A stretch of 63,933 nucleotides of DNA, counting the filler, from Kipferlia bialata (Eukaryota): NCBI GenBank assembly GCA_003568945.1. It is 6 parts of 6 records of this genome, joined end to end, with 100 filler letters (N's around TTAATTAATTAA, not from the genome) between each part and the next. Parts side by side here need not be neighbours in the genome. Positions count along the whole stretch, not along the records: positions 1 to 11,815 come from BDIP01001179.1; positions 11,916 to 23,727 come from BDIP01001180.1; positions 23,828 to 35,634 come from BDIP01001182.1; positions 35,735 to 47,538 come from BDIP01001183.1; positions 47,639 to 59,430 come from BDIP01001184.1; positions 59,531 to 63,933 come from BDIP01001217.1. One strand, given 5' to 3'. Every line of letters starts with the position of its first letter. Positions within the stretch are counted from its first letter, which is position 1. A model generated the notes under the pieces. The model saw only the letters and a list, made by a program, of their open reading frames with translations, searched no databases and was not told the origin of the DNA. Below are positions 4,886-62,512 of the stretch, piece after piece. Position numbers and translations under genes: made by a program.

Positions 4886-4976
4886 TGTATATATGACATC
4901 CCTCACCCCCAGACTGCCACCAAGACCAAGTACGAGCAGCAGCAGGATATGAGGTAGGGGTGTAGTTGTATATTAC

Positions 4977-5015
<39 letters not shown>

Positions 5016-5394
5016 GGAGAGAGGTATAGATGAGCAGCAGCAGGACATGAGGTAAGGGTGTAGTTATATATTTACTAGAACAAGGTTAATTGTACAAGCG
5101 TATCTAAAGCTGTGTGTATACCAACCCCAGGAGAGAGCTTGACCACATATATTTCAGAGAGTAATATTGTATATAGCATATTACTATCAACGTATATACC
5201 AACCCCAGGAGAGAACTGGACCAGCAGATGGAGGAGAAGAGAAGGCTGAGGGCATCGGCCACATCGGGCAGTAGGTATGTGTGTATTTCTTTTTCTCTCT
5301 CTCTCTCTCTCTCTCCCTCTATGTTTCCCCCGGTATGTCTCTTCCCCTATCACTCTATAACCACCTCTCACTCCAGACATGCCAGCTCGATGTC

Positions 5395-5445
<51 letters not shown>

Positions 5446-7724
5446 CCTATTACAACCTCTCACTCTCCAGACATGCCAGCTCCATGTCATCCTCTCCATT
5501 CGCCATGAACACTAGGTTGGTGTGTGTATCTCTCCCTCTCTCTCCCCTATATGTATCCCTTACCATAAACACCAGGTTAGTGTCTTTCTATCTTCCTCTC
5601 TTTTGTATGTAATAATCATAGCCCACTTACCCTCACCCCCAGCTCCACCACCCCTGGTGCAGACAAGAGAGCCAGGCAGGAGCAGCTGAGGTATGGACAC
5701 ATATGGGTGTATTTAGATATTCATATATTTATGTATATACTGACCTCCAGACGTGACCTAGACAGACAGGTTGAGGACATACTATTACTGACACTGGATG
5801 CATATGTAAATTTGTATATACATGTATATCTTGGAGACCTTACTCTTAGGCGTGACCTGGACAGACAGGTTGAGGACAAGAGGGCAGCCGAGGCAAGGCA
5901 GACAGAGAGGGAGAGAGAGAGAGAGAGAGATAGGCCAATGGATAGGGACGTCAGAGACTCTTGGTAATGGGTGTGGGTATATAGAATGATTCAATATATA
6001 CGTTCTATTCAGACTGTATGTGTATATCTGACACCCACCCCAGGTACCGTGATGGTCAGAGGGACTCACTCAGGGACTCAAGGTATGTATACGTCTAAAG
6101 TATATGTCTGTAGTACTCTCAGTACACTCTTTCGATGTATTACATGTATAGGGGCAGATATAAATGTATATATGTGTGTATACTGACTATGCAGGGATAT
6201 GGACCGAGACAGAGACATGGGCAGAGACTCCTACAATGATCGGTCCAGAGATGTCAGGTACGGTGTTGATATACATATACATTAGTATTCACTTACTCTG
6301 TCAGTATGATGTATATACTATAACTGTCGACGATGCTATACATGCATCATGCATTGTTCTAATTCTAGGGACTCTTATGATTATTTTTACTACGTGTACA
6401 CAAGTCACCTTTTCACTACGGTATATACCATGGTATACTCCATCTAACCCCAGGGACTCTCGTGACATGGGCAGAGAGAGAGACAGAGACCCAAGGGACA
6501 TTGGCAGAGACGCTCTCAGGGACTCCAGGTATATTCATGTGTGTAATGAATTTGTATATATATATATATATATACATATATATACATACATACACTCACC
6601 CCCAGGGACTCTGGCAGAGACATGGGAAGGGATGTCAGGTCTAGGGGGTACGATAGCAGAGACTCTCGTGCCGACAGGGAGAGAGAGAGGATAGACAGGG
6701 AGAGAGAGGCAGAGAGGGACAGGGAGAAGCAGAGGCAGGGGGTCTCGGGGGGGCTATTTAACAGGTGGGTATATATATATATATAGTGTATTGATTTGTT
6801 AATGATTGATCCGTTGATGATTGATGATTGATTCCCAGGGATGAGCAGGCCGAGAGGCGTGAGAAGCAGCTGGAGCAGAGGAGGGTCCTGGATGAGCAGA
6901 TGAACCAGTCCAGGTCGAGGGGGAGGTGCGATGGTATTAGTTACATATTTGTGTATACAGTGATACATCCGTGTCTAACGATTCAGTCTTGGCCTCTCTG
7001 GAGATCGTGACAGGGAGAGAGACAGAGAGAGAGACAGAGACAGAGAGAGGGAGAGAGACAGAGACTACCCACCTAGGGGTGGATACTCCCGTGGGAGAGA
7101 GAGAGAGAGAGACTCAGATAGGGACATGGGGAGGGACAGAGATAGCAGGGATAGAGACCCTAGGTATGTGTGAGTATCTATGTATATACATTAGTGCTTG
7201 TATGTACCTATATATATACGTATACATCCCCTCACCCCTAGGGACAGAGACAGGGGCTATAACGACATGCCAACCTCTACCCATGGGTCACAGGACAACA
7301 GGTATACACTGTTATATACATATGTATTGTGTATTTATAACCATAATCAAATATTTGTTATCCTCCCGTTTGACAGCACTGTATACTCAATGACATTTTC
7401 CTTATACATATATATATATTACTGGTACTGACACCAGCCTTGGTGCCTACTCCCCTATGACCTATTCCCCTGCTATACCCACTATATATCTCTCTCCCTG
7501 TATATGTATATGTGTATCCTATATCCTTACACCAGCCTTGGCGCCAGTACCCGTGGCTTTGACCCATCTACCAACACTATATGTATATAATAAGTGTATA
7601 CATACACTATGCTATACTGTATGTATTCTGATGTCAGCCTTGGCGCCAGTGCCCGTGGCTTTGACCCATCCACCAGGACAGTGCGGACACCCACATACAG
7701 CAGTGGGCACACACGGTATGTGGA

Positions 7725-7767
<43 letters not shown>

Positions 7768-10700
7768 ATTAAGTAGTTACTTTCTCATCAGTGTATATAT
7801 ACTGCCATGCACATAATGACATATTGCTGGCTTCTCCTTTGATACCCCCTTGTCCCCCGAGAGTGTATACGTATCTAGTTGCTCATCTATAGTACATATG
7901 TGTGTGTATCATCAATGTGTATAATCTGTCCCTTATACCCAGTTTCTCCTTCGACGCCCTGTCCCCTGAGGACAGTGTATATACAATTCAATAATATCCA
8001 TATAGCATGACTAATACCTAATATATATACTTCTATATATCGTATCTCATTCCCAGCTTCTCCTTCGATGCCCTGTCCCCTGAGGAGAAGGCCTCTAGGG
8101 CAGCCAAGGCCGAGGCACAGGCTGCACTGAGGTAGGGATATATGATATGGTATATATATATATATAAAAAGAGAGAGAGAGGGAGAGAGAGAGAGAGTAG
8201 TATGGATGTATTGGACCGTTAGGGGAGTAATCCGTTTCTATGTGTATAGTATAGTGTTCATTAACCCCAGGCGCCAGCTGGATGAGCAGCTGGCCATGAA
8301 GAAGGACTCGAAGAAGGGGAGAGTGAATGCAGGTATGACTAGTAGTTGTATACGTATATACATTGAGTATAATATATATGTATATACTATATATATGTAT
8401 GCTAGCCATGAAGAAGGACTCGAAGAAGGGGAGAGTGAATGCAGGTATATATATATTTAGTATAATATATATGTATATACTATATATATGCATGCTAGCC
8501 ATGAAGAAGGACTCGAAGAAGGGCAGGGTCAATGCAGGTATGATTTGTTGTTGTATACGTATATACATTGAGTATACTATATGTATATACTATATATATG
8601 TATGCTAGCCATGAAGAAGGACTCAAAGAAGGGGAGAGTGAATGCAGGTATGTAAGGTCATTAGATATCGACAGAGGGAGATGGAGGTGTGTATGTGTAC
8701 ATTGGTTTTGTCACTGCGCTGATATGTTTGTATATGTACTAGCCATGGACAAGGATATATATTGTTATCTATTTTCTCACTAATGCCAGGCGACTCCCGC
8801 ATCAGGAACAAGGCCACCTCTGATGCATTCATACAACCCTCTAATAATTTTTTATACTCATTTGATATTCTAGACCCTACCCTTCATACAACTGACGCAG
8901 GCGACAGTCGCATCAGGAACAAGGCCACCTCAGACCTCAGAGAATATCCACTATATATGTATATAGTGTTACTCTGCCATATTCTAATGTCAGGCGACTC
9001 CCGCATCAGGAACAAGGCCACCTCTGACATGACTGAGGCAGAGTACGACGCATGGTTCGAGGTGTGTGCAGATGTAGATAGATATAGATTTATAGAGACA
9101 TAGATAGGCATCCATGTACATGTGGTTATCTAACCCCCCAGGCCAAGGTTGCCAAGGACAGGCTCAAGCTGCTGACAATCATGTTACATATACTATATAT
9201 ATGTATACTCATACTGACTATATGTATCTAAGTGTATGTATATGACTATCTAATACCAGGCCAAGGTTGCCAAGGACAGGCTCAAGCTGCTGACCCTTGT
9301 GATAGACAACCCCAAGCCCAGTCAGTGGGACATAGCAGAGGCAGACCAACTAGCCAAGTGAGTATATAACACTGTACCCTTCACAATGTCCCTATCTTCT
9401 GACCCTTCTTAACCCAGGGATGATCCCACCTTCCGTGACATGTACGAGAAGGGCAAGAAGCAGAGAGCGGCCAGGTATTGTATATACATATATAATTGTA
9501 TATATATATATATAGTGTATTCAGTATTATAGTATACTATACTGTACATACACTATGCACTGTGACATGTACGAGAAGGGTACAAGAAGCAGAGAGCAGC
9601 CAGGTATGATATATATATATATATATATATGTATTAGCATATCATACTGTATATACACTATGCACTCTGACATCGCAAGAAGCAGAGGGCAACCAGGTAT
9701 ATATACAAGTGTGTGTATATGCTATGGATATACAATACATATACATATGGTACACCCCCCTGACCCCTAGACTGGCAGAGGAGGAGCGTCTCAAGGAAGA
9801 GCGTCTGAATGAGGAGAGAGAGAGACTTCAGGAGGAGAAGAGACGTCTAGAGGAGGAGAAGCAGCGTATCAGAGACAAGAAGGTATGTATACCTCTCCCC
9901 CCATACATTTTATTTCGTATACCGTTCGTCTAACCCCCTCAGAAGGCTGCTCTCGACGCTGAGAGGGAGAGAGACAGGGAGAGAGAGGAGAAGGAGGAGC
10001 AGCGGCTGAAGGAGGAGAGAGAGAGAGAGAGGAGACGGAGCATGGGCACCTCAAGGATGGGTACGGTTATAGTGGTACAATTGTGGATTAGTGGCGCTAC
10101 CACTTGCACACACTTATATATATACGTCTCTGCCCGAATATGCCTCAGTCGAAATACTAATGGGTCAGCTGAGGATGAGGAGAGAGAGCCCGAGAGGGGG
10201 AGAGAGAGAGACGCCCCTGGGTCACCCTCTGCCAGACCACCCATCGGCAAGAGAGGTATTTGGATATATGCATATGTATATATATATAGTATATATATTA
10301 ATATAATGATAATAATATAATACACAATAATAATAATAATATAGTTATGTATGTGAGTGTATACCTATTAGTGTACCCTCTGTCAGACCACCCATCGGCA
10401 AGAGAGGTATGCATAGTTATATATTATACATACATTATATTCATTGATATAGTATAGTATGTAGGTGAGTGTTTATACCCGTGTTGCCCTCTGCCAGACG
10501 GCAAGAGAGCTATACAGATAGATGTAAATATATGCATACATTTCTCTTTCTCTCTCTCTTTATATATATATATATATATATATACCCTACTCACCCCCAG
10601 GCCCCATCCGTAGACGTGGTGTGTCCATCAAGGGTGACCCCTCTGCTGTGTCCAGGAGGGCGGCACTCGCTGCACCACCTGTTGAAGGTGAGTAACTAGA

Positions 10701-11752
10701 GTGTATTGTATATAGTGTATAGTATATAGTATATAGTATATAGTGTAAAGACATTTATAGCGTTGAGTATTTAGGTTTTTAGACATCATGTATTTATAGT
10801 GTATGAAAGACTATGTACTTACTACCCAGACTCTTCCAACCGTTCCTTCGACCTCGAGAGGGAGAGAGAGAGAGAGCTGGTGCGGGACAGGGAGAGAGAG
10901 AGGGAGAGAGAGGAGGAGAGGGAGAGGGAGAGGGAGCAGCGCCAGCCACCTAGGGTAGGGATACTATATATGTGTGTTGTGTAGTATTTGTATGACATAT
11001 GTATATGACATTTATTGCGTCGTTCCCTCACCCCCAGCCTGCCCGCTCTGCCTCCACCCACTCCAGACCACCCAGCTCACAGGTATGATGTGCTATGATA
11101 TACCAAGTATACATGTGTATGCATTTTTACTCATACGGTATGCAATGCTGTACCACTAGACATATATTTGTCTTCATCACCCCTCACCCCCGGCTCCCCT
11201 ATTCTGGTGTTGAGGGCACCAGGGTCTATATATATAGGAGTATTTATATATACATCTATAAGCCTCTCACTCCCAGCCCCCCTATGGGTCAGGGGTTGAG
11301 GGCACCAGGGGGTACCAGCCCTCACAGGCAGCAAGGGGTGAGTGTATAGATATGTATATAGAGATGTGTATAAATATCATATGCATCTATCCACTTCTGT
11401 TTTATATACTCACTTGTATATACTCACAGGCAGCAAGGGGTGAGTGATATATGTGTATGGTGTATGAACAAGGATGGGAGAACCCCCCTAAGATATGTAC
11501 TCTTCATTCAAATACATATATATATATATATATATATACTCTGACCCCCCAGGCGATGGGCAGGAGAAGCCCAAGCCCATATATATATATGTATATATAC
11601 TCACAGACCGCAAGGGGTGTGTATATATTCTAGGATATGTACTATATGTGTATGTATGAGTGATACTGACTACTAGGCCATGAGCAGGAGAAGCCCAAGC
11701 CCACCAGCCGCACCATGTCCACAATCATGAGGGCTAGATCAGTGCTTAGCAG
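672..11752 (+). CDS. Multi-exon R/E/D-rich low-complexity coiled-coil protein with repeated L-[DR]-x-Q-[MVL]-x-x-K motifs (CSPP1/CCDC66-like, tentative); 3' end cut by contig end
   Basis: ATG at 672. Exon 1 (672-719) MSTRDDVWEKRRAERK|GT, acceptor ctcacccctag at 920, then ARTNRRKTLGRRPAAKSS. Later spliced exons give KYEQQQDMRRELDQQMEEKRRLR, QEQLRRDLDRQVEDKR, EQRRVLDEQMNQ, AALRRQLDEQLAMKK, EAEYDAWFEAKVAKDRLKLL, LAEEERLKEERLNEERERLQEEKRR. The last exon ends AG|GT at 11752 with no stop seen. Family assignment is by motif resemblance only. Confidence 0.75.
2329..2850 (+). repeat. Donor-side exon-echo array (exon 3' end + GT), true exon plus 5 copies, about 100-bp period
   Basis: gcacccaccccagacacacacgc(c/t)ag|gtatg is the true exon end at about 2329-2355 and recurs near 2416, 2520, 2630, 2731 and 2815. 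Confidence 0.9.
8401..8940 (+). repeat. One intron carrying 3 donor-side and 2 acceptor-side exon echoes
   Basis: gctagccatgaagaaggactc...aatgcag|gt occurs at about 8401, 8494 and 8604. ag|gcgac(tcc/agt)cgcatcaggaacaaggccacctc occurs at about 8790 and 8901, before the true exon at 8994. Confidence 0.9.
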
Positions 11753-12287: not shown

Positions 12288-15200
12288 CCCCTCTGAGCCA
12301 AGTCGGTTCGGGTTCTCAGTGGCTGTAGACGGTGAGTATTATATGTATACAATTAGTTATATACAGTAATATATATGCAATTTTCGTTGATTAGTGATAT
12401 ATGGGTGTCAAGAGTATCCAAACAAGTGTGTAGCTCAGTTGCAGTGGATGGTGAGTGTCATATACTTAGCACTAATTATATTGTGGTATCTTATATCAAG
12501 AGAACACCTGGTCAAGTTTTCAATTGTAATTCCACACATATATATATATATCCCTCTCACATTCTTGGGCTGTGGTGGTATTAGGAGTGAGATATACATA
12601 TACAGTGTAATACGTACTCTCACCCCCAGGCCAGTGGGCTGTGGTGGGTGCCCCAGAGGCAGGGATCAAGGGAATCAGGGGTAAGTACTATTATTCATTC
12701 TCTCTCTTGTATTATTCTCCGAGTGGTCGCCACTAAGCACTTGCACATCAGAGAGAGATGTTTCTATAAACCCTCTATATGTAACATGTATAGTACGTCT
12801 CTCTCCTCATATATCCTTCTCTCTGATCCTCCCCACCTCACCCTAGGTGCCGCCTATCTCTTCCACCGAGACAGGGACTCTGACCCATTCTCACTGGTGC
12901 AGGTATAGAGTATACACTTCTACACAATATACACTACTACTATATAGTATACTCCATATATATAGTGAATAGAGTATGTATGTATAGGGACAGGGACTCT
13001 GACCCCTTTTCACTGGTGCAGGTAGGGGGTCTAATCCTGTAATATATACTCTACTATATATACTCAATATTTATATATAGTGAAAGAGTCAGCATTTGGA
13101 CACCGACCCATTCTCTCTGGTGCAGGTAGGGGACATCAACATAGTGTATATAGTATTTGTATCCATAAGACCTCTCATAGCAGACCCTTGGCACTGGTGA
13201 TATCCAGGATGCAGTGGCCTTATACTATATGTATATATCATTGTGTATATATAGATATATGTACATATGTATTCACCACTAAGTTAAAGGCTCTGACTAT
13301 AGTCCCTTGACACTGGGGATATCCAGGATGCAGGTTCCTTTGGGTCTAGTATATGAAACACTATCATATACATTATGGGTAGTGTATTTGTACCTATAAT
13401 ACCTCATATCAGACCCTTGACACTGGTGATATCCAGAATGCAGTGGCCTTTGGCACAGCAGTGGCCATACAGGGGGACTACATGCTGGTGAGGACACGCA
13501 CATGTATATGTATATATATATATATATATATATAACTTTTGAATGTATATGCAGTGGCCATACAGGGGACTACATGCTGGTGAGTGTATACTGAGATATA
13601 CATGTATATTAGTGAATCTATCTATATTTTCATAGTGTAAGGTGTGGCCATACAGGGGGGCATACGTGCTGGTGGGTGTATGAGTACATATACATGTTCT
13701 ATACTTCCAGTCTATACTACTTGAATACATGAATTGATATTTGCCAGAACAGAGTACTGTCCCTTACCCTAGGTCAGTGCACTGGGTATATGTATATACA
13801 CACACATATATATATACATAATAAACACCGCTCTTTACCCTAGGTCAGTGCACCCCAAGGGAATGAGGGCAAGAACAGCTATGTCTTTGCATATCAGAGG
13901 TAGTATGGATCCCCTCTCTCATCGATATATATATCATATACTATTAACTGTCTCAGTATGAGCACCGGAATGGAATACTAAATATTTATGAACAGCTACG
14001 TCTTTGCATACCAGAGTTATATATGGAGTACTCTACACCCTTAGTACCTGCAGCGCTTGTTCTATTCCATCAATGTATCAGTGTTGTATTTGTATGAGTA
14101 TGGTATATGTCTGTTCTCCCAGTGATGACGGGATATAGATATCATATATCCTCAGTGAGAGTTCGATATCTATATTTTTGAAAGCCTACCTCTCACCCTA
14201 GAATTGATGGGGCCTGGGAACTGGTCCAGTGCTTAGTACATGTGGAGGAGGTCACGAACTTCCCAGGTATATCAGTATCTCTCCCTATGTGATGCATCAT
14301 ACAAGATACATTTGTATACAATTATGATTATGTGTATATACGTATGCTTTTATTCATATGAGGTGGCCATGAATTTCACATATAATATTATAAAGCTCTA
14401 TATATTTAATTACTATATATATGACTTCCAGGCAGTGGATATGGGCAGACCCTCTCCCTCTCCCTTTGGACACACTATCATATATATATATATGTATATA
14501 TGTCCTATATATATATGTACTATCTCTATCCCTGACTATTAGGTAGTGGCTATGGCGTGACCCTCTCCCTCTCCATGTGGACAGATGATGCCACTGGCAA
14601 TGAGTACGGGTGGCTGGCGGTGGGGTCTCCTAACGATGGTGACTTTAGGTAAGTCATTGCGAGTTCTAGTATTTTTACATCTTTCACATCTTTCTCTATA
14701 TATCTTCCTCTGTTTCTCTGTATGTATATGAGTCAATCACTGTATATATGTGTTACAGTTGTGTGGTATTTAGTCTTCATACTAGTATATTGTATTGATA
14801 CATATATTGATACTAACACCCAGTGGTGCTGTGTATGTGTACGGCAGGGGCCATGCCTTTGGGGAGACATCGGACGATGACAAGTGGATACTAGGTATAC
14901 ACAGTTCTCTATCATTCTATGTGATAACATAACAAGTGGATACTAGGTATTATTGATATAGTCCCTAAGTTCATTTTGCTTGTATTCTTTCTCTATGTAA
15001 TGATATTGCCATGCGTTTGGGGAGACATCGGATGACGACAAGTGGATATTAGGTAGACAGTTGTGTATACACGTTCTCTCACAATATCCTTGATGAGTAT
15101 ACTTGACCCAACTCCTAAGTATCTCTCTACATTCCCTCAGGCAGTACCATGCACTCTAAGGTTGAGTCTGTAACCCCAGAGAATATTCTTACATGGCATC

Positions 15201-21064: not shown

Positions 21065-21106
<42 letters not shown>

Positions 21107-22588: not shown

Positions 22589-22621
<33 letters not shown>

Positions 22622-44200: not shown

Positions 44201-44598
44201 TACAAAAGTATATATATAATAGTATTCATATAGTGTGGAAGAGAAGAGCCTCTGCACTGAACCGACCCACATACACTCATATATAATAGTAATCATACTG
44301 TTAGTACTACCACGCCTAGTACTGTCAGCCCCTGAGAGTCACTATAGCTGAGCGTATATGATGTACATCGAATGTACTCGTATATAGTGTATATACTGTA
44401 TACACTAATATATATGCTATACTATACGTACTGAGTGTCACCACAGCTGGTGTGTATATACTGTATACTCTGTATATAGATAGATGTATATATACAATAC
44501 TACACATACTATATACTATTAGTACCTGAGTGTCACCACCGCTGGTGTATATGCCGACAGGACATAGGGGGCATAGAGCAAGGCTCTGAGCATGAGGC

Positions 44599-44646
<48 letters not shown>

Positions 44647-46874: not shown

Positions 46875-46911
<37 letters not shown>

Positions 46912-48433: not shown

Positions 48434-48923
48434 ATGCGTCAAGGTAAACATAGAGAGAGAGAGGATATTCGACCTTCATACGTTTGTCATCATTAATACG
48501 GTCGAAAAGGGGTTCACTTTTTAGCAGATGCTGCAATATAGCAACACTAGAGAGGGTTACAATAGGGTGTCACTAGCGTTCACAATTTTACGTTCTGATG
48601 ATAGCCTATAGTGGAGAAGGGGATGTCATCTGAACACACATATATAAATATAACAAATACGTTAGAACTGGAAGAAAACGCACTCCGTAATCATATATTC
48701 TATTCTAACATTCACACGTGAGGACACTTGCTCTCTGCAGCTCGTACTCACTATTCATTATCAAGGGTGGCTACTACGAGTATATACCCATACTGACACA
48801 CCCTCTTCACTCTCTACACCCTCTAGTCCCTCTAGTCCCTTTAGAGCCATGTCTCGGAACAGTAAGAGTATACATACACTCCATACTGCACTCCCCCTAT
48901 AGACTCTAGACGCTCCAGGCCAC

Positions 48924-49027
48924 TTAGAGCCATGTCTCGGGCATCACAGTCACGTACTGGTCAGCGATGGTGCTGGGCCTGAGGTCACTGCCGGCAAAGA
49001 GACCGGCCATGCGGTAGGTCCTGGGGT

Positions 49028-49063
<36 letters not shown>

Positions 49064-49097
49064 CAAAGAGACCGGCCATGCGGTAGGTCCTGGGTGT

Positions 49098-49128
<31 letters not shown>

Positions 49129-51134
49129 ATAGAGAGAGAGAGAGAGAAAGAAAGAGAGAGAGAGGGAGTATAGGGTCATACCTGTAAGACTGGATTCCCT
49201 TTGCCTCCCAGGCTGTCCTGAGTGCACCGCTCATCTCCAGCTCCACAGCGTATGTGCCACCTGTCACCATCATGTTGTCACCGAAGAGAGGGTCAGACAG
49301 ACCGCAGGAGAAGTAGACACCTATAGTGAGGAGTCGCAGCACTGTACAGAAAGAAACCGTGTATACATACAGTATGCAGTATATCGGGTACATACACACC
49401 TGTGTCGAGCACTGCACTGGATCCCAGGTAGGGACAGAACACAGGGAGCTCGTAGTCAAAGACCTGCCGTGAGGATATATATAATATACAGTGTAGGAGT
49501 AGAGTCCACAAATGTCACAGTTAGGTTATTTATAGTGATACATAGTGATACAGAATATATGCAGCTCGTAGTCAAAGACCTGTAATGCCAGTATTCTGGC
49601 AGGTACACTCTATGACATATTATTGAACAGCATCTAACCTGGTAGATCTCCTGCCTAGCCTCGTTGACCAGGTAGAGCTGGCCTCTGGAGTGAGAGTATA
49701 ATTATGATACACAATATATACATATATACTGATACTCATATATATATACAGAATATATACTGATACCTGGAGTGTGCGTCGTGGTTGCGCTCGGGGAGGT
49801 ACCTCTCTCCATTGTTGTTGGAGAAGACAGACATGGCATACAGGTCGGGGTGGCCTAATATAAGGGGGAGAGAGAGAGAGAGAGAGAGATGTGGCATACA
49901 GGTCGAGTGGCCTAGACAGAAACAAATGAAGGGGGAGAGGGATTGTTGATGGAGAAGAATACGTGTAGGATTAGTAGAATACATAGACAACCATATATGT
50001 ATAGTGAGAGAGATAGGAAAGGTGTCTACCCTACCTGCAATACCAGTGGCGATGGGGTTGTGCTGGTGGGACCACAGCCAGGGGAACTCCCTCTCGACAG
50101 CCTGGGGGTTAACAGGTATTGATAAATACAACATAAATGGCTGTAACACAAATACAACATAAATGGCACTGGGGTAATGTAACCATCTAAAGAGAGGAAC
50201 TCCCTGGGTGGGAAGGGTATGTCAAATGTACAGAATATATATACATAAGCATATCTACAATATATATATACTATAGACTAACTAACCTCTCCCTCTCCGT
50301 CCACCAGAGTGAACTCAGCAAGGTCAAAGTGGACATCTCCAGTGCCGTCTCCATGGAGACCAACGTCAACCTAGAGGGTGAGAGAAGGATATATACATAC
50401 ATATATATTGAGGGGGAGAGAGAAAGAAAGAGGTACACTGAGTCCTGTGCCCTGACTAACAGCATGATGCCCCAACACTTCCTATATACATCCGCATGCA
50501 TATATATATGTACACACTTACATATATCTATACCTTGTACACAGCGTCCTGGGCCCTGACCGACAGCAGGATGCCTCCATCGGGCATGGGGGAGAAGGAG
50601 TTGCAGTGGAAGGTGTCGAAGGCAATGTCAGAGCCGTAGATGGGGGCATCGCTAAGGAGGGACTGGGGGTAAGAGGAACAGTAAGCTGAAAAAATACAAT
50701 AGTAAACATCAAATCAGTGAAGGAATATATCTAAGTGTATGTCAGAGCCGTAGCTGGGGGCATCGCCAAGGAGGGACTGGGGTAAGAAGAGGATATGCAG
50801 AGCATACAATAGACAGCTGATATACACACCTTGTTGAAGTTGACTGAGACGTATGGCAGGTCGGACAGGTCCTTCTTGATGTTGTCGTAGGACCTCCAGA
50901 TCCACTTGGGCTCCTTGGTGTGGCGGTTGAAGGCTGAGAGTGAGATGGAGTATTGAGAGTGTAAAAGTGTTATACTACACGATCTGTGACAAGTCTGTGA
51001 CAAGGCGTGACGCACCCAGGATGAAGTCTGTCTGGTGCTGGGGCACCTGGTCCCACATGTCCTCGGCTAGGGGGTACTCGAGGATCTTGGCAGCATCGAA
51101 CCAACCAGACAGGCCGGGGTAGTACATGGGGTCC
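48924..51134 (-). CDS. Arylsulfotransferase (ASST)-like beta-propeller, C-terminal portion only
   Basis: Exons: DPMYYPG..QTDFIL|AFNRHTKEPKWIWRSYDNI..|..FDTFHCNSFSPMPDGGILLSVRAQDAVYK|VDV..|..WSHQHNP..|..MSVFSNNNG..S|RGQLYLVNE..|VFDY..YLGSSAVLDT|GVYFSCG..IQSY|RTYR..ETWL* (TAA at 48924). The motifs DxxHxNS, xSxR, xQH, FxN and YR match the ASST family order. Confidence 0.75.
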
Positions 51135-51277: not shown

Positions 51278-51615
51278 CTTCCTCGACATCTGTCTGTGCA
51301 TGCGCTCCCCAGCATGGGCATCACTCACCTGGGGTGAGCGATGCATCTCATATATATATATATATATATATATAGATATATGATGCAAATGAGGTTGATG
51401 ATATAATAGAATGTATGTGCAGTGTATACAGCTGAGCACAGCTGAGCTTAGCCGCATATTATAAACAGAACTATGACACAATGGAATGCATACATATATA
51501 TATATATACATTCGTACCATGGGAGTGGGACCGCAGGATGTGGTCTGTGCATCAGACATGCTCAGTTCAAGTCTGGTAGTGAGGGGTAGATATATGTATA
51601 TACACAGGCAGACAA

Positions 51616-51650
<35 letters not shown>

Positions 51651-51736
51651 CTGTGCATCAGACAGCTTGAGTCTGGTCATTAGGGGAGAATATATATCCA
51701 TTTATCTATCTCAAACACAAAAGGACCAAGAGAGAC

Positions 51737-51780
<44 letters not shown>

Positions 51781-52056
51781 AGAAACAATGGGATACCTGT
51801 CCAGGGCACATGGGGGGAAGTATGTCGTGTCGAGGTCATTCTCAAGCTGTGGCACAAAGTATGGCCGAACGTCAAAGAGAGGCCGGCCCCAGCTAGTGGT
51901 TAGAAAGAGCAATCGACACAGGAATATACTAAATGAACTGTTTACATATACGCACCTTATAGGGTCTATGACCAGGTCCATCCCGTCCTCATACCCCTGG
52001 CCAGTGGGGGAGTAGGCAGAGGACTCTGGGAGGGGCATGCCTAGAGTTAGAGGATA

Positions 52057-52090
<34 letters not shown>

Positions 52091-55000
52091 TGGTCAGTGG
52101 GGGAGTAGGCAGAGGTCTCGGGGAAAGGCATGCCTGAGGGGGGTAGGGTAATACACTAACTCTAGCGGCTATTAAGTGAATGTGTATATAGATATGTATA
52201 TATATAGAGAGAGAGAGGGTATGAGAGAGAGATCTTTATACCTGTGAAGTATGAGTGTGTCCTCAGGCTCTCCAGTGAGTTGGGCTCCCCTGGCTTCCCA
52301 GCTCCTGAGGTGAGGTAAGTATATATATATATATACATGTGAATATATATCTGAGAGAGAGAGTGTGTGTGTGTGTAATATACCTAGTCCGTCGCTGGGT
52401 GAGCTCAGCAACTGACAGAGCAGATATCTACCTATCAACCTATATATATAGATAGAGAGAGAGAGAACTATATAGTGCATATATATGTACCTAGCCTATC
52501 ACTTGGTGAGCTCAGCAACTGACAGAGCAGGTCCCAGCACTCATTGGTGAAGAGACCCTCGGGGCGCTCAGGTGGCCTGGGGTCAGAACTAGAACACACA
52601 TAACTATAAAATATTACACCATTCCACATCTGTACCCATGCTCCGAGCTACCATAATGGGCAAGGACTTTGCATAGTAATATAATAACTATCAAATATAG
52701 TATATATTAGTAATAGAATGTATACAAAATATGAATCATGTACCTGTATCCCAGCTCCGTGACAATCTCAAATATGTGCTGGGGGGAGGTGCCACAGAAA
52801 GGGGCATAGCCTGATGGTTAAGTATACTACATATTAAATGAATATAGAAGAACATAATTATAGAACCTTATAGAAACATAATTATATCAAATATGTGCTG
52901 GGGGGACGTGCCACAGAAGGGGGCATAGCCTGATGGTTAAGGTCCAAATGACAATCAACAAATGGATTTAACATATTACTAAAGTGCGTGAGAGTGTGTC
53001 TAACCTGCCACCATCTCAAACAGGATGCACCCCAGGGACCAGAAGTCAACACCCCTGCCATAGCCCTCGCCTGAGGGTAAGGGGGGACATGTATGTGTGT
53101 ATATGCAAATAGTACTACATACAGTGTAATACATATAGTCAACACCCCTGCCATAGTCCTGGCCTGATAGTGAGGGTATATATATATAAATATATGTACA
53201 TATACATCAAGTACTAACTAAACTATAGTATATATAGTCCTGGCCTGGAAGTAAGGAAGTGCGAGGTCGTGATGTATATAAGGTGGTGATAGGATATGTA
53301 TTGCAATGTGTTACCTGACACAACCTCTGAGATGCAGATACTGGGATATATATGTTAGGGGAGAGGGGTACTGTGATTCACTGAGGAGACAGGGTTCAAA
53401 GAGTGGGATGAATAGGGCATGAAACTGAACTGTGATACCTGACACGACCTCAGGTGCCATGTAGGCTGGGGTGCCAACCACACTGTAGGCAAGGTAGCTG
53501 GACATCAGTATATAGTCATAACAGTATACAAGTATATAAAGATGTATCTTAATACATTAGTGCTACCATGCTGTAGGCAAGGAAGCTGGACATTAGTATA
53601 TATGTGAAGGCACACACATATATGTGATACTCCCTAAGCTTGTACTAAAAGGGATGGGATATTACCATTGTGAGTATAGTGAGCACTGATGTACCTGTTC
53701 ACCATCCCCCCACTGCTGCTACTCTCCAGGGCACGGTCACTGGACACAGACGTGTCTCGGGCCTAGAGGGGTGAGAGGGGAATATATATATATATACATA
53801 CATATACACATAATACTATCAATACCATAATACTATCAATACGTAGCGAATACCTTCTCCTCGGCTGTCTGTACCAGCTTGGCCACATTCAATACATATT
53901 ACCACATATATATGCATATGTTCCACTCACAAGCTTAGCATATCCATACCTTCTCCTCTGCTGTCTGCACCAGCTTGGCCAGACCAAAGTCATTCACTAA
54001 ACAATAGACTTGTATATATCACAATAGTATTTATACAAATATATATATACATATAATGTATATACATCCAATATATGTGGTGAGTACCTTCTCCTCTGCT
54101 GTCTGCACCAGCTTGGCCAGCCCAAAGTCAGCCAGCAGAAGGTGGCCTGGGATTAGAAGTATTAACAGGTATACTCATATCATTTATATGTACGATTGTA
54201 ACCTTCAATTCTATGATGATTACACAGCCTTCAAAGGACAAATATCTATGACAGTTCCATATGAAGATTGAAAGAATGGCACTTGCCCACACCTGACTTG
54301 CACTGCGGAAAGATAGTAAACAAATAGTAAGCAATAGAGTCAGCAATTGACAGTGTCCCCACCTGACTTGGCCACTAGGAAGTTGCTGGGCTTGATATCC
54401 CTGGGGGTGAGGGGAGGAATGAGGAGACATAGAAAGGGAGAGCAAGAGAAATAGAGAGAGTATGTGTCTGGGATCAACATGGGTGAAATTGATGCATAAT
54501 TCCCTTATCATACATGAGAAAGAGCGGCTGAGGGTAATAAGGGAAAAAATTGTGAATATTGTGGGATATAGGTATTCTCCTATCCTACCTGTGCACAAAC
54601 CCTGAGTCGTGCAGCAGTGAGACAGACTCAACCATCTCGGCAAAGTACAGCCTGGGGGTAAGGTTACTACTACAATATCCAGACGCATCCAAGAGTAAAA
54701 ACACAGTATATATAGTGTATAGTGAGACAGACTCCACCATCTCGGCAAAGTACAGCCTGGGGGTAAGGTTACTACTATACAATCCAGCCACATCCAAGAG
54801 CAAATACACAGTATACATAGTGTACAGTGAGACAGACTCAACCATCTCGGCAAAGTACAGCCTGGGGTGAGGTCACCATACAAATTGAAGGGACTATACA
54901 AGAGTAGTAGGTGAGGGGAATCGATGGCGGGTGGGGAGAGCATAACAGTATACGAAGTACACATATACGTAGTATACAACCACCTCGGTTAAGTGCAGCC

Positions 55001-55140
55001 TGGATATATACAAAGAATGCTACAAGGGCAGTACATGTTGTACAATCTGTAGAGTATACCTAGCAGCATCTTCTGGGAATGCCCCCACCATGGAGAGTAG
55101 GTATACATCTATAGACAGAGTATCACTATACCATACATAC

Positions 55141-55173
<33 letters not shown>

Positions 55174-55413
55174 GTACTCTAAATATGAATGTACCTAGCA
55201 GCGTCCTCTCGGAATGCCCCCACCATGGAGAGGTGTGTATATAGCATACCACCAAATATATATATCTAGTAGTCTATCATATATATACATACATATAATA
55301 CCTAGCAGCGTCCTCTGGGAATGCCCCCACCATAGATAGTAGGTTGGAGAAGTCACCCCCGTTGGCATAGTCCATGACAAAGAACAGGGCGTCCTAGGCA
55401 TAAATACATACAT

Positions 55414-55455
<42 letters not shown>

Positions 55456-56213
55456 ACAGAGAGGGAGAGAGAGAGAGAGAGAGGGAGCATCCCGATTGGC
55501 ATAGTCCATGACAAAGAACAGGGCGTCCTAGGTGTTAATAGAGTCATATACATAGTATATGTATATACTTATACTTAGAGAGAGAGAATCCTCATTGGCA
55601 CAGTCCATCACAAAGAACAGAGCATCCTAGGCATTAATAGAGTGATATACATAAAGATAGAGAGAGAGACAGAGACAGAGAGAGAGAGAAGTCACCCCCG
55701 TTGGCATAGTCCATGACAAAGAACAGGGCGTCCTGAGTATAAGAGAAGTAAATATATACATATATATATAGAGAGAGAGAAAGAGTATCCCCGTTGGCAT
55801 AGTCCATGACAAAGAACAGAGCATCCTAGGCATTAGAAGGATATATATATATAGAGAGAGAGAGAGAGAATCCCCGTTGGCATAGTCCATGACAAAGAAC
55901 AGGGCATCCTTGGTATTAATAGAGTGATAAACATAAAGATAGAGAGAGAGACAGAGAGAGAGAGAGAGAACCCCCATTGGCATAGTCCATCACAAAGAAC
56001 AGGGCGTCCTGAGTATAAGTACATACATAGAGATAGAGAGAGAGAGAGAGAAATAGAGAGAGAGAGAGAGAGAGAAAGAGGTATCCCAGTCTGATGACAA
56101 CATAAATACATGTATCCATAGAGAGAGGTATATATATGTATATATACCTAGATCTAAGTACCTCTGTCTGGAATGCATAGTACAGTCTGATCACAACATA
56201 AATACATATATCC

Positions 56214-56250
<37 letters not shown>

Positions 56251-57744
56251 TAAATACATGTAAATATACATAGATATATAGAAAGGTAATCCCATCCTAA
56301 CGAAATAGGGCGATACCTCTGTCTGGAATGCATAGTGCAGTCTGATCACGGCCTTGCTCCGAGGGTCCTTGCCATCTGCCACTGGCGGTGAGATGATATT
56401 CTCTCTCTCTCTCTCTCTATTTATCTCTCTCTCCCCATATCTATCTATGTACTCCTGACCAAGTAATGCCGCCCTCTCCGCCCTTATCCACTACCCTATC
56501 TCTCTCTCTCTATATATATAATCATTTATATAGTAGCATCTTTACTTGCCTAACAGTGCCGCCCTCTCTGCCCTCATCCGCCTCTGTGGGTTGGGTCCAG
56601 TCACAAGCTCCTTGTTGATGACCTAGCATTAGAATCAACGTGTAGTTCGTAGTTATTAGGTAAGAGAGTATTGGTAAACAATAGCACAGTTGCAAGAGTA
56701 CAAACCTTCATGGCATAGAGCTGTCCGTTGGTCTTGCTCCTCACCAGGTACACCTCGCTGAACCCTGATGATAAGTACACACTCTATTTACATGGTAGTA
56801 TATGTGGACACTGTATGGGTGTCAGTAACATAGATGAATATTGACACACTATATGGGCTGTACCTCCTCTGCTTAATAGCTTGATCTGCTCAAAGTCATC
56901 CTGTGAGACTGTATGTATAGAGAAAACAAATATGCATTTAATACATGCACTATATATATAATACGCCATACCTCCTCTGCTTAATAGCTTGATCTGTTCA
57001 AAGTCATCCTGCGAGACCCCTGCCCTCTTGGACCTCAGCAGAAGGGTCTCTCTGGGGGTAAACTATATATAGTAGTATGATGGTAGACATATGATATGGT
57101 GGAGTCTCAGCAGTAGGATTTCCCTATAGGTTAAGAGGTGCGTACGTGTTGGGGGTAGGCATATATCGATACGTTGGTATATATACATACCTGGCCTTGA
57201 GTGCATCCAGTGCATCCTGGTGTTCCTCATATATATATATGAATATATATATATATATCTAACCAGCGATAGTACATATACATAGCATATACATAGCATA
57301 TATACATATATATACATATACATACATATACATACCTGGCCTTGAGTGCATCCAGTGCATCCTGCTGTTCCTCACCCTCGAAGCCAGACAGGACATCGTG
57401 TCTCCTGGGGTTAGATGGATAAGTATCCGTAGTATATCATTGGAAATAGTAACACGAGAGACTCCAAGCTCATACATATCCAGACATGACATCGTGTCTC
57501 CTAGGGTGAACAAAAGAATCTGACAATGATTCCATTCATTAGAGATGTACAAATAGCATTACTACACACCTGGCTCGCCGTGCGTATAGATACCGGTTCA
57601 TCTCCAGGTAGTACTGGCCCATATAGCACTCTGACAGTAAGGATCGGGAGAGGAGACAGGGTGTGTACTGAAGTCTTGCATATCCCGTAAGCATAACCTC
57701 TCACCTAGACTCTCCACTGCCGCCAGCACCTTCTCCTTGACCTT

Positions 57745-57790
<46 letters not shown>

Positions 57791-59032
57791 CCATATCCTC
57801 TCACCTAGACTCTCCACTGCTGCCAGCACCTTCTCCTTGATCTCACCCCATCTGGCAGCATCCACACCTGGGGTCAGAGTAATATTATGTATATATATAT
57901 ATATATATATGCATTGACTTCTATACACTGAATATATAAAATAAAGATCTAGAGCTCCATCTGGCAGCATCCACACCTGGAGTGAGAGAGTATGGTATAC
58001 AAAGGTGTGTATAGTATACTACTTGGGGAGTGAAAATAATTGTCAGGAACTACTCTATGTCAGATACAGAGAGCCTAGCTCCAATATATACATATATATG
58101 TGAAGAAGATATATACAGTGAAGAGAAAGGGGAGTGAAAGAGAGTACCTAGTGAGTCCAGGTCTATCTGATCCTGAACACATATATATGTATATATATAT
58201 ATGTGTGTATATATATATAGAGAGAGAGGTAGAGAGAGTAGTACCTAGTGAGCCGACGTCCATCTGATCCTGACCACATATATGTGTATGTGTATATATA
58301 GAGAGAGAATGAGAGACAGAGAGAGAGAGGGAGAGAGTAGTACCTAGTGAGTCCAGGTCTATCTGCTCCTGGGCCTCTGTGTATGTATGTATATATATAC
58401 ATATATATATAAATACAGAGAGAGAGAGAGAGAGAGTAGTAGCAGTATACCTAGTGAGTCCAGATCAATCTGCTCCTGCGCCTCTGTCTGGGTGCCGAGG
58501 ATCTGTGGTGAGACGCATATATAGTAGAATGGATATGGGAAGTTGTGGATAAGAACCTGAGGTCATAGAATGTCTGGGTGCCAAGGATCTGTGGTGAGAG
58601 TGTATGGGGGCATAGAGTATTAAGGATACATACACACATAGCATATCCTATATACATAGTACATAGGATATGGGTAGTAGAGTAGGTAGTTGGCTGTGGA
58701 TGGGTCATGTATGTATACCTTCAACACATGCCACATAACCCACATCATAATCCTAGATACATGCACACATGATACTCCTGTACACATACAGAGTGAATAA
58801 GAAGGTGGAACAATATGGGGTATATAGATGGTCATCATGATACAGTGGTATATCCAGGTCAATGTGTACTCACCGTCACATCGATCCAGTCATCACTGTT
58901 CGCACTGCCAGGCCTCTCCTCTCCCGCTACCTCTCTCCCTCCCTCCATCCCGTCCTCCCTCTCACAACCTCTCCCTTCCCTCTCTTCATTGACTGGACTA
59001 GCCCCATCAACCCCTTCATAGTCCTCACTCAT
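51278..59032 (-). CDS. AGC Ser/Thr kinase, NDR/Dbf2-Sid2-like
   Basis: Probable ATG at 59032 (MSEDYEG..). The N-terminal regulatory-like segment reads YMGQYYLEMNRYLYARRAR..ARETLLLRSKRAGVSQDDF. The catalytic core reads IKLLSRGGFSEVYLV..YAMKVI, RAERAAL, LHYAFQT, FFVMDYANGGDF, ARLYFAEMV, HRDIKPSNFL, LADFGLAK, insert, AYSVVGTPAYMAPEV, VDFWSLGCILFEMVAGYAPF, DRLG. The AGC tail is PYFVPQLENDLDTTYF. I found no hydrophobic-motif exon and no stop. Confidence 0.92.
55490..56010 (-). repeat. Acceptor-side exon-echo array in the kinase, 6 copies of DALFFVMDYAN separated by (GA)n/(TA)n
   Basis: On the + strand ttggca(t/c)agtccat(g/c)acaaagaacag(g/a)gc(g/a)tcct recurs six times upstream (in transcript sense) of the full exon at about 55302-55393. 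Confidence 0.92.
56382..56549 (-). other. GC-AG intron in the kinase gene
   Basis: The exon ends ..CTG TTA G|GCAAGT and the next exon (TG GCA GAT..) needs phase 1. The nearby GT donor gives the wrong frame. Confidence 0.75.
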
Positions 59033-59430
59033 CACAAGCCGACACCCACTCTCCAAGCAGCGGCTACTAGCCCCCCTGCTCAGGTGGATCCGGTGCTAAC
59101 TCTCTGTAGTACTGTAGTGGAGTGGTCAAGAGAGTGGCAGGTCCTGATACTTCTGTAACTGGGTGTACTCCGCTAGGACCCCAGGGGAGACCCCTACGAC
59201 AACCTCAGGAGTGCGCAAGCACCAGGGTGCTTTGTTACAAGCACACTACTCCCACAGAGAGCGTTGCAGTCAGGGGTAGGCTCTAAACAGATGGTGACAT
59301 AGGCCTAGAGATGCAAGTGTTTTTGTCTTGACAGGTCGAAAGGGTGTAGCGTCGAGTCACATCGATTCGGATCAGTTTGCATTGCCAACCACAAGACATC
59401 AACCCTGTACCTCAGGGACATCAGGCGTCG

Positions 59431-59530
59431 NNNNNNNNNNNNNNNNNNNNNNNNNNNNNNNNNNNNNNNNNNNNTTAATTAATTAANNNNNNNNNNNNNN
59501 NNNNNNNNNNNNNNNNNNNNNNNNNNNNNN
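59431..59530. other. Artificial contig-joining linker
   Basis: Same 100-bp structure. Confidence 0.97.
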
Positions 59531-59585
<55 letters not shown>

Positions 59586-59616
59586 TCTTGGGTTACTTAA
59601 TGTTCTAACCCCCCAG

Positions 59617-62512
59617 GAGGAGACTGCCCTTGCCCACTCTGTGGTGGAGTCATTGGAGCATGAACTGGAGGGGGTGCTCAGGAGGGTAGGGGTGGCAGCA
59701 ACACAGGTATGATCTTACAGATGCATGTCTCTCTTTCAACTTCTATGTCGGGACAGGGCGTGGCGGCAACACAAAGATCTTTATTGTGTGTTGTTGTGTA
59801 TGAATATGCTCCGTCACCCTTCTCCTACCCCCAGGCCCAGGCAGCTGAGGCCAGGTCGGCTGACATCAGAGCCCAGATGGCATATGACAGGTATGGTGTA
59901 TGGAGTATATACATATATGTGTATATATATCTTCTGTATATTTGAAATGAACATGACAGCCTGAACATGGTAGGCCACATCCACAACTATCCATCTATCA
60001 ATACACTCCACCTATGTCTCTTTATGAATATGTATATACATACCTCTCACCCCCAGGCGTGTCCTCTCCACCCAGGCTATGGCAGGGGAGGATGGGATGG
60101 GGCAGGCAAGGTGGGTATGGGTATACATAGACAGACACACACACATATATATATATATGTGTGTGTGTGTGCGGATATGTGAGTTGAGTACCAGAGGCCC
60201 TGACTCAGTGTGTATATGTTCGTATAGAGTATATAGATATCTTATGCCCAGGCGTGCCCTCGAGGCTCTGTCTGCCTCTGCTGAGGAGAGAGAGAGAGAG
60301 ACCAGGGCCATAGCTGCAGCAGTGGGGGAGCAGACCAATCAGTGGCAGATGGAGAGAGAGGAGCTCAGGATAAAGCTGGTGAGCAAGGGATATATATATA
60401 TATATATGTGTGTGTGTGTATGCTCTACTGTTAGTGTATAATAGTATTGTGTATACCAGTGGCAGATGGAGAGGGAGGAACTGAGGATAAAGCTGGGGAG
60501 TGTATTCTTATTGTTCATTGTGCAAACATACATTATTGGTTATGAAGTATACATGCTTATCCTGACCCCAGGCCGAGACCCAGACCCTTCTTGATGCCGC
60601 CAACACCACCAACAGGGACCTGGGGGCAGCCATGCTAAAGGCGAGGTATGGGACATACACATATACATATGTATATATATATATATATTATATACATATA
60701 CATCCATCTACTAGTTATGGGGACCTGGGGGCAGCCATGCTCAAGGCAAGGTATGGGATATGAATAGATGGGTAGGATGCTTGATAAATCAAGACAATCG
60801 TCCTTGTATTGAAGGCGAGGTATGTGTAGATTCACGTCTCTGATGTATTAAAGTGCCACGTATTGATGTGTATAATACTATCGCTCTGCTCACCCCCAGA
60901 CAACTGGTCGAAGCAGCAGTGACTGCAGAGGTACAGGCCAGACAGGTACGGGTGCATATGAGTAGTATGTCTTATGGACATGTACATGTGTATAGTATAG
61001 TGATTATACAGCATACCTCTCACCAACAGGGTGCCGAACGTGTTGCCGTTGCCCTTGCCAAGGCCAGGAAGGAGACAGCTCTCTGGCGGGACAGGACTAC
61101 ATTACTAGCTAGGTATGAGTTATGTAGGCTATTATTATTACTGTTCATTCCTGCGATGTATTTAGTGTGTGCTCTTACGCCACAGGTCCCGACCCAGCGG
61201 TGTGTGTCACGATGCATGGTGTCAGACAGAGGGTGACACACCTGGGGGCAGCCCTACCAATGGCACCCCTAACACTGATACATACAGTGTGGGTGTGGGC
61301 ACTGACCCCGTGTACCCTGTGCACAGGTGGACAGAGACAGACCCAGTGATCACAATATCAAGGCAGACAGGTATATAGCGAGTAATCTGCTAGTAAACCA
61401 AAGCCTTATAGGTTATGGAGATATATATGGACCAATGTACAGAGACAGACCCAGTGATTACAATATCTAGACAGACAGTGTGTTACTGTAGATGCAGACA
61501 CTCTACCAGTGTGTATTTGTATTTGTATATCATTGATTGAACACAGTACACACAATCATTCTGTCCATACTCACCACAGGCGATGACCGCGAGATTGACA
61601 TCTCCACCCCCTATACACTATGTATATACGTATATATGGACAGAGTACTTAGTGACTCTATCTGTCTGCTTCTATACATAGTCTACCCTTAGGCGATGAC
61701 CGTGAGGTTGACATCTCCACCCCCTATGTAGAAGGGGGTATGTCACCCAGGGAGAGGGAGAGAGAGATGGACATGCTGGCCCAGGACAACAGAGAGCTGG
61801 CAGAGGAGAACAAGACACTGGCGGTGAAGGTAGGAATACATGTACTCACACTTATGATGTACATATGTCATGTATGTGGGTATTCTACTTATATTTACCC
61901 CAAGGTCAGCGAGGCCCGTGCCGATACTATGTATAGACATCTATCTGTGTATCTATATATGTCTATTTAAGTATGAATATGTGTATATATGTATACAATC
62001 ATACCCACCCCCAGGTCAGCGAGGCCCGTGCCGATGCGAGGGATGCCGAGGACATCTACAAGGAGAGAGAGGCCGACATATCGGAGCTGGAGCACAGAAA
62101 CACAAAGCTGGAGGTAGGGCGCACATGTTCAGTATATATATGTATATATATATGTATGTGTGTGTGTGTGTGTGTGTATGTGTGTGAATGACCCCAGGCT
62201 GCAGTGGAGGCCACTGTGTCCGAGCTCTCCTCTGCCAAGGCCAGGATCCTCTCTCTCTCAGCCAGGGAGAGAGAGAGAGACGCCAGGGAGAAGGAGGCTG
62301 TTGCAGCGGTGGAGAGGGAGAGAGAGGCGCTCACCAGGGAGAGAGAGAGGGCAGAGCGGGCCGAGAAGGCCGTGGAGACCTTAAGGCTAGAGCAGCAGAG
62401 GCTCTTTGCGGCCTATGAGAGGGAGAGAGGCCTTGCCCAGCAGTACAAGCAGAGGGGAGACAGGCTCAAGGAACTCAGGCTGAAGGAGATTGCTGAGATG
62501 GAGATAACGTAG
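59617..62512 (+). CDS. Long coiled-coil protein, 5' truncated
   Basis: Eleven phase-consistent exons run from EETALAHSVVESLEHELE.. through QWQMEREELRIKL, LAQDNRELAEENKTLAVK and ISELEHRNTKLE to ..RLKEIAEMEIT* (TAG ends 62512). Confidence 0.8.

Follow-up and report, generated by a model that had tools for sequence, protein, structure and literature searches.

Partial exon copies in the introns of Kipferlia bialata that resemble retired exon ends

We analyzed a window of 63,933 nucleotides (nt) joined from six records of the Kipferlia bialata genome (assembly GCA_003568945.1), in which many introns contain partial copies of an adjoining exon, here termed echoes, that are anchored at the exon end. 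The excess of silent differences between echoes and their exons is real, and the typical echo is less extreme than the hand-picked examples by which an earlier, sequence-only reading of the window had introduced it. Selection acted before a copy became an echo, as indicated by three results: silent divergence independent of age, seemingly unfiltered damage, and kept splice signals. The ends of the echoes look like splice junctions that formerly functioned in another version of the gene. We lean slightly towards the explanation that echoes are former working exon ends, displaced when a break in the exon was repaired from a strongly diverged allele and the repair was finished by end-joining. That the divergence of the echoes came from an allele, by whatever route, is probable.

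Results

Echoes in the modelled introns

Curation by coordinate gave 13 gene models comprising 164 exons and 151 introns. Exons were proposed with the aid of an automatic gene finder, whose output was put to no other use because it overfitted. All models have open frames, and all modelled introns are bounded by GT and AG except for one GC donor. A CTNAC-like branch motif, often followed by a run of C, was found within approximately 10 nt of the AG in 0.89 of the true acceptors of these introns. Model B agrees by eye with the public protein P0002 (KIPB_005160), and model H with P0001 (KIPB_005168) from residues QVTT onward; the models other than A, B, and H come from our curation. For gene A, six GT..AG joints in run X2 agree with the model; this run was presumed to be RNA, its joints being absent from the DNA run X1. 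Support from contigs and unitigs refers to positions 1200-4600 only (3.4 kb of gene A), and contigs drop rare variants and isoforms. A Pfam scan named a family for P0002 only (PF14312), and the other eight of nine queries, seven being single short exons, returned no family.

Each intron was compared with its adjacent exons by frame-blind DNA Smith-Waterman alignment (score at least 26), with decoy exons as the control. A match was observed in 121 of 302 intron/adjacent-exon pairs, against 1.8 expected from the decoys. The total was 196 alignments, 189 of which were anchored at the exon end and counted as echoes. Excluded from the counts were the seven unanchored alignments, alignments overlapping modelled exons, and the region 27790-28650, which offered no intact exon for comparison. 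The upstream exons of gene G (approximately 38990-40620) and the stretches 47639-48900 and 63000-63933 were left unmodelled.

Echoes touch 98 of the 164 exons and 96 of the 151 introns, with 91 on the acceptor side and 98 on the donor side. With one exception, copies of exon starts lie upstream and copies of exon ends downstream; all 189 echoes are direct and head-to-tail, as opposed to one match of wrong polarity and three weak inverted matches. The exon part of an echo is approximately 30 nt, the spacing of successive copies has a median of 106 nt (quartiles 93-118), and intron length grows by 105.6 nt per echo (r=0.91); introns of at most 100 nt have a median length of 79. The 189 units of approximately 106 nt compare with 38,359 intron bases in the models. 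A single echo is present at 87 of 126 exon ends, and echo flanks resemble the flank of their own exon more than the background. Only three echoes are whole-exon copies, and none has both AG and GT. The whole-exon copy at 61436-61478 (+) in gene J has two dead splice sites (CA and TG), as expected if copies with two sites survive only when inactivated. Acceptor signals are absent from the ends of donor-side spacers (branch motif 0.02), as are donors from the starts of acceptor-side spacers (0.04). A duplication ruler of fixed length was unsupported, since the correlation of spacer with echo length was weak and negative (rho -0.15 to -0.22).

Echoes of terminal exons were also observed beyond the stop codon, at 37379-37407 (+), 62559-62592 (+), and 48841-48857 (-); therefore, the process is not confined to introns.

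Silent and replacement differences

After the open ends were trimmed, 376 codons differed between the 189 echoes and their exons, 220 silently (59%) and 156 by replacement; the untrimmed figure was 259 silent codons of 477 (54%). The trimmed differences at the first, second, and third codon positions numbered 97, 68, and 260. Thus, the claim that the differences are mostly silent holds over all echoes, at approximately 57% of the nucleotide differences rather than nearly all. The codon pairs cited for it are present (32876/33001, 12316/12435, 8317/8522, 8996/8903, 24834/24512 and 24642, 60355/60472, 61347/61455, and the pair GTC TCT/GTC AGT near 38520 on the minus strand), and so are the cited replacements A>T (7536-7573), H>Q (38520), and V>I (61580-61614). 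Switches of serine between TCN and AGY exist, but are rare, with two distinct cases among 110 serine codons covered, and 7 of 43 codon differences involving multiple bases are silent.

Four-fold sites differed at a frequency of 0.173 (164/948) and zero-fold sites at 0.041 (149/3630), a ratio of 4.2. The proportions of differing silent sites (pS) and replacement sites (pN) were 0.177 and 0.043, respectively, and pN/pS was 0.243 (95% confidence interval by exon bootstrap, 0.186-0.315), or 0.264 (0.202-0.34) with shared variants counted once; none of 5000 bootstraps reached 0.5. The expected ratio for a dead copy alone is 1, and wrong-frame controls gave 1.46 and 2.07. In the test against neutral decay that the sequence-only reading had proposed, the observed ratio fell below that simulated for neutral echo decay plus silent exon change through the identical pipeline (0.55 ± 0.05, minimum 0.45 in 30 runs). 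Acceptor-side echoes were weaker, with a marginal result (pN/pS 0.39, p=0.05 at kappa 2). Differences between echoes were equally filtered (0.253), and their pS of 0.215 was no lower than that between echo and exon.

The time at which selection acted

Across echoes, pS and pN were uncorrelated (rho 0.08, p=0.30). The 102 echoes free of replacements had pS 0.173, and the values for those with up to 1, up to 2.5, and more replacements were 0.150, 0.159, and 0.239, respectively. Replacements were overdispersed (1.95), but silent changes were not (1.13). The best model combined a fixed silent offset of 0.137 with a near-exponential decay of mean 0.041 (Akaike information criterion [AIC] 1027.7); a constant pS/pN ratio was 28 units worse (AIC 1056.1) and neutral decay 81 units worse (AIC 1108.5). 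This ranking was unchanged with the nearest echo only (n=126) and for each side. In 20 of 39 arrays, replacements were more numerous in the far copy than in the near one, and in 8 the reverse held (Wilcoxon p=0.002); silent changes were split 16 to 14.

Damage to the coding part looked unfiltered: 16 of the 19 gaps break the reading frame, four stops were observed against 5.2 expected, and echoes with a lost splice dinucleotide have the same pN/pS (0.242). The protein-level selection deduced in the sequence-only reading is therefore upheld in that the differences passed through selection, but not as continuing selection on the echoes.

Splice signals were nevertheless kept. The AG was retained in 74 of 83 acceptor-side echoes and the branch motif in 0.81, compared with 0.65 and 0.52 in a half-on-echo simulation, in which 0 of 500 runs reached the observed AG retention or position weight matrix score. 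For internal exons, the GT was kept in 73 of 86 donor-side echoes. In the acceptor flanks, 6.3 of 16 letters are different, also where the adjoining exon parts are identical, and the flank differences are mostly C/T at -3 (14/20) and A/G at +3 (14/19). The splice sites of 33/83 and 31/86 echoes (31-40%) scored above the working site. Identical acceptor flanks were found in only 2 of 83 cases, which indicates that fresh same-chromatid duplicates are nearly absent; near-identical 35-nt flanks numbered 3/83 and 2/86.

A proposed route from a divergent allele

Among the origins offered in the sequence-only reading, copying from divergent alleles fared best, and we suggest a route of four steps. 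After a break inside an exon, one broken end would invade the other allele, and would do so within the exon because only exons remain alignable between alleles. The invading end would then copy across the splice site and some 75 bases of donor intron. Thereafter, the extended end would be joined to the other broken end by alternative end-joining, instead of re-annealing, because the introns are too dissimilar. Finally, the new exon end would function, and the old end with its own splice site would remain alongside. Such steps would account for the polarity seen, with copies of exon starts lying upstream and those of exon ends downstream. An echo would have a silent difference (about 0.14) from the outset, and echoes would accumulate as a push-down stack in which the oldest copy is farthest away and most decayed.

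Copies with two splice sites would enter the message and be purged, and those with one site would be tolerated, since the spliceosome would pair each site with its nearest partner on the other side of the exon. This pairing was seen in gene A, where two spliced contigs with six joints used the exon-proximal sites and skipped GT- and AG-bearing echoes, and it may be a general rule. The public protein models P0001 and P0002 also contain no echo.

Published accounts of repair favour this route. Fornicates are reported to have two Dmc1 paralogues without Rad51A, and metamonads to be without canonical, Ku-type end-joining (PMC8516963). Dmc1-type residues are described as aiding repair at a divergence of at least 20% (PMC6719624), and the joining of an extended end by polymerase theta as yielding tandem duplications (PMC7368036).

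Several points weigh against this route. Alternative end-joining is called 'partial' in some metamonads (PMC8516963). No donor allele was seen in the DNA contigs of 1200-4600, in protein searches for genes B and H, or in a metagenome scan, in which P0001 gave 47 pattern matches and no relative; the P0001 and P0002 clusters have one member each. The DNA contigs show no second letter in any exon over 1200-4600, and the eight longest DNA pieces there have a similar depth (339-458). The route assumes alleles whose silent divergence is very high (0.10-0.17) and whose introns can barely be aligned, and it does not predict the tight unit length (median 106 nt, quartiles 93-118). The offset differs by side without explanation, 0.096 for acceptor and 0.170 for donor echoes. 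Conversion from the exon, strongest on the nearest copy, could also give the gradient (pS 0.144 near, 0.19 far). The simulation of flanks was performed without insertions or deletions. In addition, neither the 34 most diverged echoes (pN/pS 0.455, p=0.28) nor gene I2 (0.61) beat the simulated null.

Alternative explanations

The strongest alternative, which we regard as unlikely and yet worth serious consideration, is that short tandem duplications came first and that out-of-register crossing-over or conversion between exon and echo of divergent alleles followed, gaining, renewing, and losing copies with minisatellite-like turnover. Such exchange explains the fixed offset equally well. Furthermore, where two echoes each depart from the exon, they have the same base as one another in 48 of 58 cases, and these shared variants are the most filtered (0.135); the array in the kinase gene shows all four gametes in two of four informative site pairs (only four pairs), and arrays with alike units are present at 8401-8647 and 54721-54861. 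On the other hand, the 87 of 126 ends with one echo already have pS 0.185, identical founder duplicates are nearly absent, and exchange alone does not predict ordered decay.

Improbable, in our view, is the template reservoir suggested in the sequence-only reading. Echoes would in that case recombine back into the exon frequently enough that selection purges replacements and guards splice signals. This would account for the low pN/pS together with the kept AG, GT, and branch motif, and the replacements are slightly more conservative than neutral ones (BLOSUM -0.32 vs -0.65, p=0.024). However, a reservoir predicts pS proportional to pN, contrary to the absence of correlation and the poorer fit of a constant ratio (AIC 1056 vs 1028), and neither frameshifting gaps nor stops are depleted. 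Within-chromosome conversion also should not lower the ratio under 0.5. Echo-specific variants inside exons, which had been proposed as a check, were not seen in the contigs over 3.4 kb, contigs in which rare variants are dropped.

We attach very little probability to translation of the echoes in minor isoforms as alternative or tandem exons. A second splice-like dinucleotide lies near the open end in 96 of 189 echoes by a loose test, and the pair 34092/34205 resembles a recruited copy. The three copies at 8401-8647, outside the RNA-checked region, have GT, AG at the open end, and 39 nt in frame, and may be included as tandem exons. Nevertheless, pN/pS hardly depends on a second site (0.247 in echoes that have one, 0.239 in those that lack it) and is alike in dead-site copies, most gaps shift the frame, the spliced contigs skip every echo under their joints, and no echo is part of P0001 or P0002.

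Paralogous genes elsewhere in the genome are equally poor candidates for the donors. A few echoes show conservative divergence at multiple residues (30382-30429, 34445-34477), and the protein searches covered genes B and H only; for these two, however, only their own protein was returned, with the next relatives of gene B at most 44% identical, and 11 of the 12 models with scorable differences have ratios of 0.14-0.37.

An assembly artefact, by which haplotypes were stitched in tandem, is still less probable. The public assembly is described as short-read (PMC5874029), and run X1 may be its source. An identical 53-nt pair at 1714-1766 and 1769-1821 (+), joined by NN, is probably an assembly slip and contributes no differences. 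Yet the tandem arrangement was borne out: in 1200-4600, an exon, its echoes, and the exon that follows are spanned by DNA unitigs of full depth that show 0 other letters. Moreover, echoes break in mid-exon, have stops and frameshifts, and decay in positional order. At 2903-2904, the single covering DNA unitig reads two different letters at full depth, a likely base error in the window or strain difference.

Plain same-chromosome duplication with neutral echo decay and silent exon drift suffices for the 34 most diverged echoes and gene I2, but for the whole set it is rejected by the simulated ratio, by the AIC, and by a 4-fold/0-fold ratio of 4.2 where at most 2 is allowed, unless exons mutate approximately three times faster than adjacent intron DNA.

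Features of the window

The positions of genes and echoes are listed in Table 1. We take gene D to be annexin-like and presume a resemblance of gene C to an equilibrative nucleoside transporter, for which the Pfam scan gave no confirmation.

Table 1 Genes and echoes described in the window
Feature	Position	Strand	Remarks
Gene A	672..11752	+	40 modelled exons; low-complexity Arg/Asp/Glu-rich protein; 34 echoes; pN/pS 0.21
Donor-side echo of exon 1951-1996	2056..2084	+	Joint 1994>2279 passes over it; exon, echo, and following exon lie on one DNA unitig
Four scored donor-side echoes of exon 2281-2355	2414..2844	+	GT kept in each; joint 2353>2921 omits all four
One donor-side echo of exon 3936-3983 and three acceptor-side echoes of exon 4507-4562	4044..4459	+	All on one DNA unitig; left out by joint 3982>4506
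Three donor-side echoes of exon 8271-8332	8401..8647	+	Copy at 8494 has GGC AGG GTC
Two acceptor-side echoes of exon 8994-9061	8790..8935	+	8901 carries Ser TCC>AGT switch
Gene B, FG-GAP repeat protein KIPB_005160	12288..18956	+	18 exons; 29 echoes; pN/pS 0.21; P0002 match, PF14312
Donor-side echo of exon 12288-12331	12435..12451	+	4 silent changes; below score threshold, outside counts
Gene C, membrane protein	19299..23612	-	11 echoes; pN/pS 0.37
Gene D, two parts around N gap	24050..27276	+	
Five acceptor-side echoes of gene D exon 24831-24916	24312-24780	+	AGG and CGC types
Gene E (parts E2, E3)	29142..34823	+	16 exons; 23 echoes, including 32994-33030
Gene F	35802..37240	+	5 exons; 6 echoes
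Gene G part	38063..38921	-	3 exons
Two acceptor-side echoes in gene G	38478-38520, 38612-38654	-	TCT>AGT and CAT>CAG common to both
Gene H (KIPB_005168)	41216..47419	-	14 exons; 30 echoes; pN/pS 0.31
Gene I2	48923..51134	-	10 exons; 6 echoes; pN/pS 0.61 (contrary to trend)
Gene I1, protein kinase	51278..58502	-	Catalytic motifs by eye; 22 exons; 29 echoes; pN/pS 0.29
Six-copy acceptor-side array in gene I1	55488-56008	-	Mosaic silent variants
Gene J, coiled-coil-like	59617..62512	+	11 exons; 7 echoes, including 60457-60495 and 61436-61478; pN/pS 0.15

Some sites depart from the usual arrangement. In gene E, an exon start at 31895-31925 (+) seems to contain an insertion of 14 nt, judged against the echo at 31795, which breaks the frame between E2 and E3. 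The kinase model requires a GC donor at 56550 (-); the echo near 56455-56489 has GT and two leucine codons each changed at two bases. The excluded region 27790-28650 (+) contains five acceptor-side and two or three donor-side copies of one exon, overlapping by approximately 17 nt, with no intact full exon, and is either a splitting exon or a mis-assembly.

A search for spliced junctions gave 14 matches, 13 of which were by eye ordinary echoes with chance extension. An origin from complementary DNA (cDNA) was rejected as a general route, because only the match at 46604-46657 (-) is credible. This decayed intron-less copy of a spliced junction (21+20 matching letters, junction AG|GT) sits in the intron between exons 46824-46761 and 46522-46474, and may derive from an allele that lacked the intron or from a piece of cDNA.

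Discussion

Implications

We propose, tentatively and with a little less than even confidence, that these introns record, in fossil form and in order, a hyperdiverse population with recombination: Dmc1-type repair between alleles some 10-17% apart at silent sites would exchange exon ends again and again and stack retired ends by age. If so, the genome of a single clone would reveal how diverse the population is, and would disclose hidden genetic exchange in this free-living relative of Giardia. The process would have made approximately half of the intron DNA examined and, now and then, a new intron, and echoes would be tolerated only because a reduced spliceosome defines exons. The lineage is described as having 87 of 174 spliceosomal proteins (PMC6679479). 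If the source is allelic, a single genome would already yield an estimate of silent diversity (about 0.14), with stack position as an internal clock, and evidence of genetic exchange in a fornicate.

Echoes would supply a source for much of the intron DNA of this genome, which bears on whether its 124,912 introns are simply ancestral, as argued in PMC5874029. They also provide many natural decoy splice sites for testing exon definition.

Comparison with known systems

The literature searched, in main texts without supplements, held no account of these echoes in Kipferlia or of the silent offset; in the Kipferlia genome paper, the word starts 'duplicat', 'heterozyg', and 'ploid' occur 0 times. 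The closest known system is the mirages of amphioxus (Adh3, BflGb6, BflGb9, troponin C, and PGBD5), as described in PMC3087553 and PMC3902484, where they are proposed as a route of intron gain. Mirages and echoes are both tandem copies across the exon-intron boundary, at the 5' or 3' end, in which the AG or GT is mostly kept; their unit sizes overlap (10-160 bp, against approximately 106 in Kipferlia), and the message is undisturbed in mirages, as it is for echoes in the checked part of gene A. In contrast, mirages are reported from few genes as minisatellites under concerted evolution with units 81-100% alike, whereas in Kipferlia 98 of 164 exons are affected, mostly by single units with a barely alignable intron part and an age-independent silent offset. 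Because the units are mostly single and unlike in their intron part, we consider Kipferlia echoes a variant rather than a member of the mirages. The word 'synonymous' is absent from the main text of both papers, whose supplementary alignments may bear on the point.

Two further expectations from known processes differ from the observations. A copy identical at birth is at odds with the fixed offset of 0.137 and with identical acceptor flanks in only 2 of 83 cases; alternatively spliced tandem exons are at odds with the 3 of 189 whole-exon copies, none having AG and GT, and with the 16 of 19 gaps that shift the frame. In brc-1/brd-1 mutants of C. elegans, aborted synthesis-dependent strand annealing followed by polymerase theta end-joining connects an extended broken end to the other end and gives head-to-tail duplications (PMC7368036), the geometry that we propose for Kipferlia. 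The C. elegans duplications arise in repair mutants from the sister chromatid, an identical copy, and span 1 kb to 1 Mb, whereas in Kipferlia the template would be a diverged allele and the units are approximately 106 nt.

In the Rogers model, as summarised in PMC3087553, an intron is gained through a duplicated AG|GT proto-splice site. Within gene E, a 16-nt stretch of exon with AG at its end occurs twice, at 34092-34107 and, 113 nt further on, at 34205-34220 (+). The first copy has an acceptor and a GT donor; the second has lost its acceptor (GG) and provides the AG for the next exon, with the frame open. Judged from these signals, 34092-34220 is a candidate for a new intron gained by the Rogers route. 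That model creates introns, whereas nearly all other Kipferlia echoes lengthen existing ones, by 105.6 nt per echo.

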